Shown: piece by piece, positions 27,185-28,112 of the stretch
How positions within the stretch are numbered: the first letter of the stretch is position 1
Layout: each line of letters begins with the position of its first letter
DNA from: a virus
DNA length: 54,525 bases
Direction: 5' to 3' (one strand)
UHGV virus genome: UHGV-0179380
Translations under genes and position numbers: made by a program
Notes under the pieces: model-generated
The model's input: the letters and a program-made list of their open reading frames with translations, nothing else
Databases searched by the model: none
What the model was told of the DNA's origin: nothing

Positions 27185-27268
27185 TCAATATTTATTGATG
27201 ATATATACGCAAGCAACAAAACTTGCGCAGTATGTTAATACTTCCAACCAGTCTAATAGCTCTTTCAT
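27185..27268 (-). CDS. hydrophobic mini-protein K (27 aa)
   Basis: MKELLDWLEVLTYCASFVACVYIINKY; SD aaggg; last unit of tandem array. Confidence 0.5.
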   Translation of the reverse strand: MKELLDWLEVLTYCASFVACVYIINKY

Positions 27269-27278
27269 TGTTTACCCT

Positions 27279-27350
27279 TCACATAATAGAAAGCGCCCAG
27301 GTAATAAGGACGATAGCCAAAACCATATAGATGAAATCTGACTCTCTCAT
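27279..27350 (-). CDS. hydrophobic mini-protein J (23 aa)
   Basis: MRESDFIYMVLAIVLITWALSIM; SD aggtgg. Confidence 0.5.
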   Translation of the reverse strand: MRESDFIYMVLAIVLITWALSIM

Positions 27351-27364
27351 ATTGTCCACCTTGT

Positions 27365-27433
27365 TTACGCGAAGAAAACAATAACAACTAACAGCGAACT
27401 TATCGCTATGATTAAGAAATCACTGTCAGACAT
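27365..27433 (-). CDS. hydrophobic mini-protein I (22 aa)
   Basis: MSDSDFLIIAISSLLVVIVFFA; start overlaps stop of upstream unit. Confidence 0.5.
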   Translation of the reverse strand: MSDSDFLIIAISSLLVVIVFFA

Positions 27434-27500
27434 TGATAATCACCCCTACGATAATTAACGCGGCGATGCATACGAATAATACGGCTTCGATAACATCCAT
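27426..27500 (-). CDS. hydrophobic mini-protein H (24 aa)
   Basis: MDVIEAVLFVCIAALIIVGVIINV; junction TAGgtgagcgaATGG. Confidence 0.5.
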   Translation of the reverse strand: MDVIEAVLFVCIAALIIVGVIINV

Positions 27501-27508
27501 TCGCTCAC

Positions 27509-27577
27509 CTATTGAGTCAGTGCGGTCATGGTGAGAACAATCGCAACGATCAGGAAAAAGAAATCAAGCCATTTCAT
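27509..27577 (-). CDS. hydrophobic mini-protein G (22 aa)
   Basis: MKWLDFFFLIVAIVLTMTALTQ; ATGA overlap with F. Confidence 0.5.
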   Translation of the reverse strand: MKWLDFFFLIVAIVLTMTALTQ

Positions 27578-27654
27578 TTTTTAAACTCCCGATAAACATC
27601 TACGGCAATGACTACAACTACAGCCACCAGCAATAGCATTTCGTATGCGTTCAT
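27574..27654 (-). CDS. hydrophobic mini-protein F (26 aa)
   Basis: MNAYEMLLLVAVVVVIAVDVYREFKK; ATGA overlap with E; SD gggtag. Confidence 0.5.
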   Translation of the reverse strand: MNAYEMLLLVAVVVVIAVDVYREFKK

Positions 27655-27749
27655 TTGATGCTACCCATAACAAGGCCGATGATGATAATTATGGCGACAA
27701 TGCCTAACATCATGCCGCACATAATCGCCAGTAATTCGAATATATCCAT
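27651..27749 (-). CDS. hydrophobic mini-protein E (32 aa)
   Basis: MDIFELLAIMCGMMLGIVAIIIIIGLVMGSIK; junction TAGgtgacggcATGG. Confidence 0.5.
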   Translation of the reverse strand: MDIFELLAIMCGMMLGIVAIIIIIGLVMGSIK

Positions 27750-27757
27750 GCCGTCAC

Positions 27758-27832
27758 CTATACAACATTCTTCCACCAGAAATAGATAATGACGGCGACC
27801 AACGACCACCAGATGAGATCGTAAATATTCAT
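27758..27832 (-). CDS. hydrophobic mini-protein D (24 aa)
   Basis: MNIYDLIWWSLVAVIIYFWWKNVV; SD aaggt. Confidence 0.5.
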   Translation of the reverse strand: MNIYDLIWWSLVAVIIYFWWKNVV

Positions 27833-27843
27833 GGTGAATACCT

Positions 27844-27918
27844 TCAGTTTTCAATGAATATCATGATCGCCAGCCATACAGCGACGCAGGCAGAAAGGAT
27901 AATGAGCGGGTCAATCAT
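27844..27918 (-). CDS. hydrophobic mini-protein C (24 aa)
   Basis: MIDPLIILSACVAVWLAIMIFIEN; SD gggtga; alternative upstream ATG at 27930. Confidence 0.5.
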   Translation of the reverse strand: MIDPLIILSACVAVWLAIMIFIEN

Positions 27919-27930
27919 ATTGTCACCCAT

Positions 27931-28026
27931 CTAATATTTGCTCTTTACGGTTATCAGCACGGCGATAACAAAGCCAACCAGAAATATAGATATGCCTATT
28001 AATCCGGCGATGGTGCTGTCGTCCAT
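27931..28026 (-). CDS. hydrophobic mini-protein B (31 aa)
   Basis: MDDSTIAGLIGISIFLVGFVIAVLITVKSKY; junction TGATTATG. Confidence 0.5.
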   Translation of the reverse strand: MDDSTIAGLIGISIFLVGFVIAVLITVKSKY

Positions 28027-28028
28027 AA

Positions 28029-28112
28029 TCAACCTACTGGCCATTTTGGGGAAAACATTACAATCGCAGTTGCAGCCGCGCCGATAAATACACCTAGCAG
28101 GAAAGTAAACAT
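28029..28112 (-). CDS. hydrophobic mini-protein A (27 aa)
   Basis: MFTFLLGVFIGAAATAIVMFSPKWPVG; SD gggggtga; ATG two nt after stop of HExxH gene. Confidence 0.5.
   Translation of the reverse strand: MFTFLLGVFIGAAATAIVMFSPKWPVG

Follow-up and report, generated by a model that had tools for sequence, protein, structure and literature searches.

Eleven head-to-tail ORFs of 22-32 aa each, at positions 27185-28112 of the 54,525-nucleotide genome of a temperate E. coli phage (UHGV-0179380; this whole stretch is the window), are real protein-coding genes under purifying selection and not a gap, an RNA or a set of chance ORFs. They occupy the minus strand between the gene for a 180-aa HExxH protein and the terminase small subunit (TerS) gene (Table 1), exactly where the original prediction had placed them. 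Their products are predicted single-helix membrane peptides made together by chained translation, and confidence in the coding identity, the membrane nature and the chained translation, taken jointly, is high. In the overall explanation favored here, the peptides would build up in the inner membrane during late infection and influence the lysis clock. A probability of about 0.4 is assigned to this explanation with all of its steps together.

Coding evidence and turnover of the array

ORF boundaries were set at ATG starts backed by Shine-Dalgarno (SD) sequences. Apart from a 67-aa frame at 27651-27854, which extends mini-ORF 5 at its N-terminus, neither strand of the interval has an ORF reaching 60 aa, as originally described. 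This TTG-initiated frame was rejected, in agreement with its earlier dismissal, because its pN/pS value is 1.60, compared with 0.30 in the frame of mini-ORF 4 that it overlaps. When the 946-nt spacer was shuffled 2000 times with dinucleotides preserved, hydrophobic ATG-initiated ORFs of at least 20 aa numbered 1.3 on average and 5 at most, compared with 10-11 observed in the array and 2 on the opposite strand. Thymine occupies 56% of the second codon positions in the array. A strict ORF scan, which also picked up the annotated 26-aa P22 ninA gene as a control, detected nine ORFs in this 1 kb; the densities in lambda, P22 and T1 do not exceed one per kb, and that in PRD1 does not exceed two.

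Table 1. Positions of the mini-ORFs and neighboring genes in the window, with the conservation of each mini-ORF among DNA-defined orthologs
Feature	Position	Strand	Size	Peptide	Intact orthologs	pN/pS	Remarks
Lysis cassette	28995-30146	-					PF16080, PF00959, PF03245, PF06085; upstream of the array and co-oriented with it
Class II holin	29946-30146	-	66 aa				PF16080
SAR endolysin, phage-21-type	29453-30025	-					matches 3HDE (E 2e-63), SAR segment included
Rz	28995-29483	-					Rz1 embedded at 29063-29275
HExxH gene	28115-28657	-	180 aa				phrog_1365; upstream boundary; stop coupled to mini-ORF 1
Mini-ORF 1 (family O)	28029-28112	-	27 aa	MFTFLLGVFIGAAATAIVMFSPKWPVG	4/4	0.17	ATG 2 nt past the TGA of the upstream 180-aa gene; SD GGTGA; families I, M, N and T are alternatives in this slot in relatives
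Mini-ORF 2 (family A1)	27931-28026	-	31 aa	MDDSTIAGLIGISIFLVGFVIAVLITVKSKY	31/31	0.27	N-flank acidic; C-flank KSKY; exact sequence in databases solely as 'hypothetical protein'
Mini-ORF 3 (family A2, core)	27844-27918	-	24 aa	MIDPLIILSACVAVWLAIMIFIEN	49/49	0.36	found at 48/51 loci
Mini-ORF 4 (family E)	27758-27832	-	24 aa	MNIYDLIWWSLVAVIIYFWWKNVV	33/34	0.28-0.30	tryptophan-rich helix; mini-ORF 6 is a paralog
Mini-ORF 5 (family G)	27651-27749	-	32 aa	MDIFELLAIMCGMMLGIVAIIIIIGLVMGSIK	23/23	0.13	true start is the ATG 4 nt 3' of AGGTGA, which overlaps the ORF 4 TAG; present or absent as a whole unit between families E and B
Mini-ORF 6 (family B, core)	27574-27654	-	26 aa	MNAYEMLLLVAVVVVIAVDVYREFKK	48/48	0.23	ATGA overlap with ORF 5; found at 48/51 loci
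Mini-ORF 7 (family C, core)	27509-27577	-	22 aa	MKWLDFFFLIVAIVLTMTALTQ	45/45	0.08	ATGA overlap with ORF 6; found at 49/51 loci; families J, L and V are paralogs
Mini-ORF 8 (family H)	27426-27500	-	24 aa	MDVIEAVLFVCIAALIIVGVIINV	22/22	0.27	junction TAGGTGAgcgaATG; 5' end and junction homologous to those of mini-ORF 5; mutually exclusive with allelic family K across loci
Mini-ORF 9 (family F)	27365-27433	-	22 aa	MSDSDFLIIAISSLLVVIVFFA	35/36	0.24	8-nt overlap with ORF 8 (ATGTCTGA); no start codon in 4 relatives
Mini-ORF 10 (family L)	27279-27350	-	23 aa	MRESDFIYMVLAIVLITWALSIM	11/11	0.17	GTG at 27359 is an alternative start giving 26 aa
Mini-ORF 11 (family D, core)	27185-27268	-	27 aa	MKELLDWLEVLTYCASFVACVYIINKY	44/44	0.24	always the final unit; TerS ATG 10 nt further on
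Terminase small subunit, Sf6-type	26689-27174	-					PF20901 (E 4.5e-37); phrog_1482; downstream boundary

The original proposal of translationally coupled mini-genes for single-helix hydrophobic peptides is strongly supported by the conservation of the frames, a test put forward with that proposal. Among the DNA-defined orthologs of the eleven ORFs, 345 of 347 are intact, with no stops and two frameshifts, although the loci are related and the counts are not independent events. Variable sites at codon positions 1, 2 and 3 number 74, 63 and 151, respectively (chi-square p = 4e-11). The pooled pN/pS value is 0.217 in frame but 1.03 and 1.34 when the frame is shifted; the single ORFs range from 0.08 to 0.36. 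Peptide-defined ortholog groups gave a matching outcome. Replacements of hydrophobic residues are conservative, and 314 of 318 lead to another hydrophobic or a small residue. The array is also kept in a relative whose HExxH protein is just 62% identical. The peptides share the defining features of small membrane proteins, namely a length of at most 50 aa, one predicted transmembrane (TM) helix and a reading frame under purifying selection.

No usable match was found for any peptide in PHROGs, Pfam, NCBIfam or PADLOC, and the sole library match was that of peptide 10 to the uncharacterised family phrog_19939 (E = 0.007). The Pfam holin families and PF10805 (DUF2730) are matched by no peptide, and searches for curated toxin families in Pfam (E up to 1) and NCBIfam returned only sub-threshold generic TM matches. 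Mimicry of holin, Rz or Rz1 TM segments was considered and rejected, since the best score (z 5.9, family B against the Rz1 signal peptide) represents a generic hydrophobic match. Sub-threshold Rfam matches to a snoRNA and to the S15 leader (21 bits; gathering score 39.5) were likewise dismissed. Seven of ten peptides are absent from a 15-billion-protein collection. When the peptides were concatenated, a search of 5.8 billion proteins yielded nothing except artefacts and the HExxH fusion, and tblastn against 50,697 phage records matched solely seven records of the mEp021 group. The mini-ORFs are not mentioned in the mEpimmI genome paper, and a literature search did not find a published description of a comparable array, in line with the initial impression that it was undescribed. 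PGAP annotates almost nothing here, and ~1 kb of prophage DNA stays empty. The 67-aa ORF is an example of the wrong frames called by other pipelines, and some metagenome gene callers read through the array by taking TGA as a sense codon. The array exposes a concrete annotation failure.

At 51 related loci, from coliphages and prophages of the mEp021/mEpimmI group, the slot always holds 3-13 same-strand hydrophobic mini-ORFs with a median tiling of 91%. These loci display ~39 architectures assembled from about two dozen mini-protein families, with peptides of 20-47 aa (47 aa in family S). Families A2, B, C and D form a nearly universal core, and the terminal unit is family D or its variant P at nearly every locus. 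Loci retrieved through TerS and through HExxH alignment all belong to the same group (83-99% identity). The closest TerS relatives outside the group share less than 40% identity, and the slot genes of HK620 are unrelated.

The array evolves by gain and loss of whole units, each consisting of an SD and an ORF, at the junctions, together with ancient duplication and divergence; loss of a start codon or fusion occurs occasionally. Family L and its paralog J occur together at none of the loci (18 with J and 13 with L). Plaque-forming isolates carry from 5 units (mEp021 and mEp515) up to 12, which indicates that most single units are not needed under laboratory conditions. The original suggestion of amplification by duplication stands in part. 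Genuine paralog sets exist (C/J/L/V, B/E/Q with z 5-10, and G with H), but they are ancient, and several units show no relation past shared composition. Recent tandem duplication was rejected, as TRF found no repeat and the direct repeats span 12-29 nt at 63-92% identity.

Predicted membrane topology and probable coupled expression

Each peptide contains one uncharged hydrophobic span of 17-26 residues (median 20), and the means of the best 17-residue Kyte-Doolittle windows range from 1.6 to 3.4. In the N-flanks of 178 alleles, D/E residues outnumber K/R residues (204 vs 65), and the C-flanks of the same alleles show the opposite bias (153 K/R vs 52 D/E). The C-flanks comprise 0-6 residues and form no cytoplasmic domain. 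A polar or acidic N-terminus, initially attributed to every peptide, is observed in all but mini-ORF 1 (MFTFLL...). Based on hydropathy and charge counts, the peptides are predicted to be single-pass inner-membrane helices, with the acidic N-flank and neutral or basic C-flank pointing to an N-out/C-in orientation by the positive-inside rule. Membrane insertion would be of the YidC/PMF type, as for the Pf3 coat protein.

The stop-to-start distances are, in order, +2, +2, +12, +11, +8, -4, -4, +8, -8, +14 and +10 nt. Ten of the eleven ORFs are preceded by an SD match of 4 nt or longer; mini-ORF 6 is the exception to the SD initially assigned to every ORF and depends on its ATGA overlap. The typical SD is of the AGGTGA type and overlaps the preceding stop (TAGGTGA, GGTGATTATG). 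The conserved junctions were each seen twice, as had been reported (GATTATG, the ATGA overlap and TAGGTGAnnnnATGG). Among the relatives, an SD match occurs at 387 of 457 junctions, with gap-length peaks at -8, -4, +2 and +8 to +11 nt. The array combines stop/start proximity with an SD at the end of the upstream ORF, the arrangement that defines coupled operons. Starts located -8 to +14 nt from stops, with SDs or ATGA overlaps, suggest that ribosomes terminate and reinitiate, and we infer that the mini-genes are translated as a chain by such predicted termination-reinitiation, with the peptides made together.

No excess of promoters or terminators was found within the array, where promoter-like sites on both strands number 3, compared with 8.2 expected from shuffles. 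Genes for the Q antiterminator (PF03589), NinG and RusA are located upstream, and one orientation is shared by everything from Q through the tail genes, in the order Q, accessory genes, holin, SAR endolysin, Rz/Rz1, HExxH gene, array and TerS-TerL-portal. Rz and the array are separated by the HExxH gene and by a conserved spacer of 340 nt that contains a weak hairpin. The array probably has no promoter or terminator of its own and is transcribed within the Q-dependent late operon. With such transcription, the peptides would reach the inner membrane and collect there at the late stage of infection, along with the lysis proteins.

Candidate functions of the peptides

In the energised inner membrane, the peptides would act by helix-helix contacts or bulk effects. 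Their likeliest target would be the PMF-gated pinholin/SAR-endolysin lysis clock, whose trigger point they may hold or shift, with the core families A2, B, C and D fulfilling the basic role and the variable paralogous additions tuning it. SAR retention is PMF-dependent, and endolysin release in Mu is controlled by releasin, a single-TMD N-out/C-in protein encoded within five genes downstream of the SAR endolysin (PMC9239132). The array starts four genes downstream of the SAR endolysin, and charge bias predicts N-out/C-in there as well. The link to lysis is one of position only, and the peptides are unlike holin TM segments. Modulation of the energised membrane and the lysis clock is tentatively favored over anti-defence or exclusion, and the holin-modulator idea of the original prediction remains the leading functional guess.

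Bacterial small membrane proteins typically act by binding larger membrane proteins, as would the peptides of an anti-defence or superinfection-exclusion arsenal, the next-ranked and rather unlikely explanation. Each peptide would bind and block a different membrane protein, which could be a host abortive-infection effector triggered by late proteins or an inner-membrane part that rival phages use for DNA entry, and the cassettes would shuffle under an arms race. The diversity of architectures, the whole-unit gain and loss, the paralog replacement and the mutual exclusivity of J with L and of H with K argue for this explanation, as does the lysis-terminase slot itself, which carries unrelated accessory genes in HK620 and bor in lambda. 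The high turnover of units is no less compatible with an arms-race locus than with a regulator of lysis. However, no promoter of its own is visible, so the lysogen expression usual for exclusion genes is not expected; the four nearly universal and strongly constrained families suit a phage-intrinsic role, and PADLOC matches none of the peptides. A broader modular version, also doubtful, would give each micro-protein a different inner-membrane target, including the phage's own pinholin/SAR endolysin, host effectors and the entry ports of rivals. The lineage might then, at comparably long odds and by analogy, reshuffle its SD-plus-ORF cassettes as other phages reshuffle anti-defence islands.

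It is improbable that the peptides, or at least the first of them, serve as partners, anchors or substrates of the HExxH protein, a putative metallopeptidase that would be drawn to the inner membrane as part of one module with the array. The H79-E80-x-x-H83 motif of this protein is invariant, and its C-terminal tail is very basic, which is compatible with such a role. Its structure model (pLDDT 73) and sequence gave no match in Pfam, NCBIfam, PADLOC, or PDB sequence or fold searches. The sole match was a BFVD fold family of small, mostly unnamed and uncharacterised phage proteins, a few of which are labelled SprT-like or metalloprotease. The peptidase activity is putative. The HExxH gene and the array occur together at every locus with the stop coupled to mini-ORF 1, but both are confined to one lineage, which makes the co-occurrence uninformative. 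The database entries P0003 and P0004 are longer than 180 aa, and in P0003 the HExxH protein is fused in frame to mini-ORF 1, yielding a predicted TM-anchored form. This fusion favors a shared module, and a membrane-tethered protease is discussed as a model of how the SAR endolysin is released in the paper on Mu releasin (PMC9239132). The G-run that permits the fusion is nevertheless missing from many loci, an HNH gene lies between the HExxH gene and the array in mEp013, and HExxH-fold relatives in other phages are not known to come with arrays.

Two further explanations are very improbable. Type I toxins such as Ibs/Sib, Ldr/Rdl, TisB and DinQ are hydrophobic single-helix peptides of 18-35 aa that sometimes occur in tandem chromosomal copies, and an array of membrane-depolarising toxins held in check post-transcriptionally would share their size, hydrophobicity and single helix. 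The peptides also stay below the 60-aa bound of the class, which further includes Hok and ShoB. The resemblance raised in the original prediction goes no further than size and hydrophobicity. Type I toxins are stand-alone, near-identical copies, each with its own promoter and antisense RNA, whereas the mini-genes are highly diverged and coupled inside a phage late operon, an architecture that already contradicts this explanation. Neither individual promoters nor antisense RNA genes nor long 5' UTRs fit into gaps of -8 to +14 nt, promoter-like sites are not enriched, Rfam finds no sRNA, and no curated toxin family is matched. In the second explanation, the ORF chain would be a cis-acting translational device that sets ribosome flux into terS or tethers late mRNA to the membrane, consistent with an array that always adjoins TerS, is tightly coupled and varies freely in length. 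TerS has its own strong SD (AGGTGA), and a pure relay has no need of the low pN/pS values, the conserved specific polar and aromatic positions and the preserved hydrophobicity of the peptides. The least credible explanation, that an AT-rich spacer here carries only chance ORFs, encodes a structured non-coding RNA or serves as a DNA site such as pac, could appeal to its emptiness in most annotation pipelines and to a mildly negative but unremarkable folding z-score of -1.86, yet is already refuted by the comparative data, given shuffles that never approach the observed tiling, codon periodicity, frame-specific purifying selection, no Rfam match near threshold and whole-ORF swapping incompatible with a fixed DNA or RNA site; the structured-RNA alternative named at the outset falls with it.

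Annotation of bacterial and phage genomes is poorest for small hydrophobic proteins, and a function is known for few of them. About two dozen single-helix families of 20-47 residues are found at this locus with unusually clear evidence of selection, and more than 50 sequenced relatives carry natural knock-outs, fusions and paralog swaps. The natural variants and the cultivable K-12-infecting carriers (mEp021, mEp010, mEp013, mEp044, mEp515, mEp554 and MagusPhagus) make micro-protein function directly testable by deletion and add-back. If the peptides tune the PMF-gated lysis clock, as favored here, or block membrane defence effectors, they would constitute a new class of phage regulator and a source of minimal TM-binding peptides. 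If the modular arsenal is real, the array would be without precedent among described anti-defence or lysis-control islands in consisting wholly of transmembrane peptides of 20-30 residues, and it would amount to a natural library of selective TM binders.

Comparison with known systems

Among lysis proteins, Mu releasin gp25 (DUF2730) and P1 LydB/C/D are accessory TM lysis regulators encoded near SAR endolysins. Releasin resembles the mini-peptides in its single TMD and N-out/C-in orientation (both predicted for the mini-peptides), in a gene position a few genes downstream of the SAR endolysin and spanins, and in a lysis system gated by membrane energisation. It differs in its length of 99 aa, the major part of which is a 73-aa cytoplasmic domain, and the mini-peptides have neither that domain nor the DUF2730 signature. 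Holins, typically 60-150 aa long and encoded beside the endolysin, combine one or more TMDs with a charged cytoplasmic C-terminal domain. The mini-peptides, with 22-32 aa and C-flanks of 0-5 residues, lack such a domain, and Rz/Rz1, the 340-nt spacer and the HExxH gene stand between the endolysin and the array. Actinobacteriophage lysis cassettes contain several small TM genes in a row, with copy numbers that vary among relatives, and their holin-like groups comprise one to four genes. These sets lie directly beside the lysins, whereas up to 13 peptides of 20-47 aa follow the spanins and another gene here. The tandem holin-like TMD proteins of these cassettes (PMC9671378, PMC13056207) are larger than the mini-peptides, one of them having 88 aa and two TMDs (PMC13056207).

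The late operons of PRD1 contain small single-TM genes near the packaging ATPase (P20, P22, ORFi, ORFx and ORFq), which are detected by the same scan. Their density is at most two per kb versus nine per kb in the array, and the PRD1 virion has a lipid membrane that houses such proteins, unlike the tailed phages of the mEp021 group. The array occupies the same position as the variable moron slot between lysis and terminase genes in lambdoid and P22-like phages (hkbK-N in HK620, rha/orf80 in P22 and bor in lambda). Those slots contain unrelated genes of ordinary size, often with their own promoters, and none holds a chain of TM micro-genes.

The small membrane proteins AcrZ, MgtS, CydX and KdpF and P22 NinA are likewise short, have a single predicted TM helix, are missed by annotation and are detected by purifying selection. 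They have no sequence family in common with the array. Conserved intergenic smORFs of Enterobacteriaceae mostly encode hydrophobic, potentially TM peptides (PMC11188072). Small membrane proteins are encoded by single genes or pairs, whereas 3-13 mini-genes are chained here in a fixed late-operon slot with cassette-like turnover.

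Architecture and coding character of the mini-ORF array

The 940 nt between the HExxH gene and the gene of the terminase small subunit (TerS) are filled by 11 head-to-tail minus-strand mini-ORFs, exactly as the original prediction placed them, with stop-to-start distances of -8 to +14 nt. The claim that no ORF of at least 60 aa exists there on either strand, except a 67-aa TTG frame, is borne out. A Shine-Dalgarno (SD) sequence had been ascribed to every ORF, and an SD match of at least 4 nt is found for 10 of the 11 starts, mostly as AGGTGA or GGTGA and often overlapping the previous stop codon (TAGGTGA); ORF 6 has none and is coupled through an ATGA overlap instead. 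Similarly, the polar N-terminus attributed to all of the peptides is absent from that of ORF 1. Both corrections are minor.

The 11-ORF array is not a chance occurrence. In 2000 dinucleotide-preserving shuffles of the spacer, hydrophobic ATG-initiated ORFs of at least 20 aa numbered 1.3 on average and 5 at most, versus 10-11 observed and 2 on the opposite strand. The second codon positions of the array are 56% T and the first positions are purine-rich, as expected of a region that codes for hydrophobic residues. When both strands of the whole window were scanned under strict criteria (an ATG, an SD, a length of 18-50 aa and a hydrophobic stretch), 20 matches were obtained, nine of which lie within the 1 kb of the array; the maximum per kb is 1 in lambda, P22 and T1 and 2 in the membrane-containing phage PRD1, used as a positive control, and these four reference phages represent a baseline rather than a systematic survey. 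Further candidate small transmembrane (TM) ORFs of the window, each with an ATG, an SD and a hydrophobic span, are listed in the table. In lambda (NC_001416, 40567-40647, plus strand), a 26-aa hydrophobic ORF (MTIYITELITGLLVIAGLFIWGRGKS) between ren and ninB is unannotated in RefSeq; the control scan detected it, and its product differs very little from the annotated ninA product of P22.

Orthologs were defined by DNA similarity to the ORFs of the window, which avoids the ascertainment bias of peptide clustering. The frames are conserved, with 345 of 347 DNA-defined copies intact (no stops and two frameshifts), counts that are not independent events because the loci are related. Variable alignment columns are distributed over the three codon positions as 74/63/151 (chi-square p = 4e-11). 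Relative to the window, pN/pS is 0.217 in frame and 1.03 and 1.34 in the shifted frames of the same data; these controls share the limit of relatedness yet differ by approximately five-fold. The 11 single ORFs exhibit pN/pS values of 0.08-0.36, and peptide-defined groups exhibit 0.22 in frame versus 1.00 and 1.40 in the shifted frames. At A/V/L/I/M/F/W/C positions, 314 of 318 replacements are to hydrophobic or small residues. The 67-aa frame, annotated in several GenBank records, has a pN/pS of 1.60, compared with 0.30 for the ORF 4 frame that it overlaps, and was thus rightly rejected in the original prediction. A structured noncoding RNA, the competing identity named at the outset, is rejected because no Rfam match approaches the threshold, the folding z-score is -1.86 and the substitutions are codon-periodic. 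Comparative analysis of the substitutions shows that the 11 ORFs are real genes under selection, which form a tightly packed chain of conserved, predicted hydrophobic helices with modular turnover.

Modular composition in related phages

The comparison covers 51 loci of one phage lineage, consisting of seven GenBank phages, 43 IMG/VR contigs found through TerS and the window. In all 51 loci, the slot between TerS and the HExxH gene (an HNH gene in mEp013) spans 318-1154 nt and is tiled over 73-94% of its length (median 91%) by same-strand hydrophobic mini-ORFs. One relative with just 62% identity in the HExxH protein also keeps the array. The mini-ORFs comprise approximately 23 orthologous groups in the colinear order [I/O/M/N/T]-A1-[R/Q]-A2-E-G-B-J-C-[H/K]-F-[L/V]-S-[D/P], and the window adopts the architecture O-A1-A2-E-G-B-C-H-F-L-D. 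Arrays contain 3-13 units (median 9) in approximately 39 architectures, and five families (C, A2, B, D and A1) occur in almost all loci, each in 43-49. Architecture breakpoints coincide with ORF boundaries. The 5' end of each ORF is constant whatever precedes it, and the stop codon and SD come from the upstream neighbor. The start of family B (ATGAACGCATAC) is identical after G, E or A2, and family G, where present, is a precise insert with the TAGGTGA of E on one side and the ATG of B on the other.

Amplification by duplication, as originally suggested, explains the array in part. Composition-controlled alignments identify paralogs among C/J/L/V (z 6-19), B/E/Q (z 5-10) and the families that are alternatives at one slot (H/K, I/O/N and D/P). 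DNA-level repeats are short and diverged, such as the junction and 5' end of ORF 5 and ORF 8 (27 nt, 78% identical), and TRF detects no tandem repeats in the array; the duplication is therefore ancient and does not account for all units. The paralogs J and L never occur together (0 overlap, 18 and 13 loci; Fisher p = 0.002, uncorrected for phylogeny), and no locus has both H and K. Decay is observed as loss of the start codon of F in four loci and of E in L022, and a deletion remnant persists in L040. In the spacer upstream of TerS in L030 (IMGVR_UViG_3300045988_063525), fusion of A1 and A2 has produced a 60-aa ORF whose two hydrophobic spans are connected by a basic loop (…NAKIKRWLEGKMIDPL…), a predicted natural two-helix hairpin built from two adjacent mini-genes. 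An acidic, non-hydrophobic ORF of approximately 50 aa (e.g. MNDEELKIADEIRKALDSAENNETIYLSEQEVEKMMNEFKLRFGKDD) is the last unit before TerS in five loci (L014, L023, L024, L032 and L051), indicating that the slot also accepts soluble micro-genes; this ORF has no PADLOC match. In mEp013, an HNH endonuclease gene (1299-1784) separates the HExxH gene from the array, which lacks its first slots. HNH genes beside the terminase are common in phages, and this one probably marks a separate insertion event.

Databases hardly show the genes of the array. The slot is blank in the mEp021 record, and in other records only some of the mini-ORFs are annotated, at times in an incorrect frame. The region is present in 35 of 5,426 complete E. 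coli genomes, and of the records listed, only one has any RefSeq/PGAP annotation beneath the match. Exact matches to three of 10 peptides occur in a collection of 15 billion proteins, labeled 'hypothetical'; the remaining seven are missing from it. Some metagenome gene calls run straight through the array with TGA read as tryptophan; four such artefactual read-throughs of 165-176 aa (P0132-P0135) originate from ENA/Logan contigs shorter than 1 kb, and the many TGA stops of the array apparently mislead automatic genetic-code choice on short contigs.

Genomic context in the late region

On sequence similarity, the window is assigned to the mEp021 ('mEpimmI') group of temperate Nus-dependent coliphages (PMC11893012). 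Its nearest record is Escherichia phage MagusPhagus (98%), followed by mEp044, mEp554, mEp010, mEp013, mEp021 and mEp515. All genes from the NinG/RusA/Q region through the structural genes are co-oriented. Approximately 5 kb of small genes lie between the Q region and a terminator-like hairpin before the holin, a possible terminator that Q-modified polymerase would read through. The lysis system is assigned by homology to the pinholin/SAR-endolysin type of phage 21: the endolysin matches the phage 21 SAR endolysin structure (3HDE; E = 2e-63), including the N-terminal SAR segment, and is also close to PDB 4ZPU. The 190-aa TTG start of the endolysin is probably too long, and a start at MISQSL is likely. 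The cassette is followed by a 340-nt spacer, the HExxH gene, the array, TerS, TerL, the portal gene and the structural genes. The spacer, whose sequence is highly conserved in mEp021, forms only a weak hairpin and lacks a convincing minus-strand ORF; its plus strand carries 40-41-aa ORFs, and the mEp021 record puts a weak terminator (AAACGG...CCGTTTTCAGTGTTTT) in it. Given the co-orientation of the genes and the lack of enrichment of promoter-like or terminator-like sites within the array in simple consensus searches, transcription of the array within the Q-dependent late operon is a well-supported inference.

Features of the window in and around the array
Feature	Position	Strand	Description
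Candidate small TM ORF	48113-48214	+
Candidate small TM ORF	43080-43187	-	35 aa; adjacent to the next
Candidate small TM ORF	42956-43072	-	38 aa
Candidate small TM ORF	41133-41225	-
Q-type antiterminator	35724-36452		PF03589; upstream, with NinG and RusA
88-aa ORF	30439-30705	-	Just upstream of the hairpin; hydrophobic spans, no family match
GC-rich hairpin and T-run	30171-30189	-	Directly upstream of the holin
Lysis cassette	29453-30146	-	66-aa class II holin (PF16080) and endolysin; followed by Rz with embedded Rz1
Spacer	28658-28994		Between Rz and the HExxH gene
HExxH gene	28115-28657	-	180-aa protein; directly upstream of the array
Mini-ORFs 1 to 11	27185-28112	-	27, 31, 24, 24, 32, 26, 22, 24, 22, 23 and 27 aa
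67-aa TTG frame	27651-27854		Overlaps ORF 4
TerS	26689-27174	-	PF20901
Candidate small TM ORF	12145-12219	+

In the HExxH protein, the H79-E80-x-x-H83 motif is invariant, and a usable model (pLDDT 73) finds no fold match in the PDB. BFVD contains many small, uncharacterized phage relatives, a few of which are named SprT-like or metalloprotease. In the 209-aa database protein P0003, the HExxH protein is fused in frame to mini-ORF 1 (...SFKRG-VIMFTFLLGV...; window junction 28110-28120) through one extra G in a G5 run (aaacGGGGGtgattATG) or a -1 ribosomal slip there, and thereby gains a predicted C-terminal TM anchor; the 211-aa protein P0004 probably carries the same kind of extension. Because the G-run is missing from many loci, the P0003 fusion probably arose by mutation or through an error in sequencing, and not by programmed frameshifting.

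Predicted topology, possible function and known systems

TM helices and topology were called from hydropathy and charge counts only. Each peptide consists of little more than one uncharged hydrophobic stretch, 17-26 residues long in the window with a median of 20 across 178 alleles. In these alleles, the N-terminal flanks contain 204 D/E versus 65 K/R residues, and the C-terminal flanks contain 153 K/R versus 52 D/E residues. Under the positive-inside rule, this asymmetry predicts that the peptides cross the membrane once, with an external N-terminus and an internal C-terminus, and insertion into the inner membrane in this orientation is a well-supported prediction. Conserved polar and aromatic positions (W7, Y13, C20, Y22 and N25-K26 in D/P; the D-F pair in C/J/L/V; N2-x-Y4-acidic in B/E/Q) point to specific contacts rather than mere greasiness.

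The array would be transcribed late under Q control and, with good support from its anatomy, translated by termination-reinitiation, so that the peptides would be made together. Once inserted, they would accumulate in the inner membrane alongside the lysis system in time, and they may modulate the energized membrane and the lysis clock, a tentative reading with a probability of roughly 0.35. Pinholin/SAR-endolysin lysis is triggered by collapse of the membrane potential. SAR domains are PMF-dependent (PMC9239132). Modulation of the lysis clock is favored because the peptides share membrane and timing with PMF-gated lysis, because the conserved core suggests a phage-intrinsic role and because extra small TM proteins regulate SAR-endolysin lysis in Mu and P1. 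An anti-defense or exclusion arsenal at the membrane level, to which the turnover pattern of the array lends weight, is somewhat less likely. A functional module of the array with the HExxH protein is quite improbable; both are confined to one lineage, which makes their co-occurrence uninformative. The remaining rivals have small probabilities, and the rest is reserved for functions not considered. The resemblance to type I toxins raised in the original prediction fails beyond size and hydrophobicity, as the array lacks the regulatory layout that defines these toxins and its peptides match none of the curated toxin families; membership of a known holin family is rejected on the lack of a family match, of a charged C-terminal domain and of similarity to the TM segments of the phage's own holin.

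Single small TM proteins are a recognized, mostly uncharacterized class in phages and bacteria, exemplified by P22 NinA, which the strict scan recovered, the small membrane proteins of PRD1 and the hydrophobic intergenic microproteins of Enterobacteriaceae (PMC11188072). A literature search found no published description of any conserved array that couples as many as 13 different TM peptides and shows cassette dynamics, in agreement with the initial impression that the array had not been described. Mu releasin (gp25), whose cytoplasmic domain and DUF2730 signature are missing from the mini-peptides, is alike in context and predicted topology, and the N-out/C-in design predicted for the mini-peptides is that of its TM anchor and of the single-pass Pf3 coat protein.
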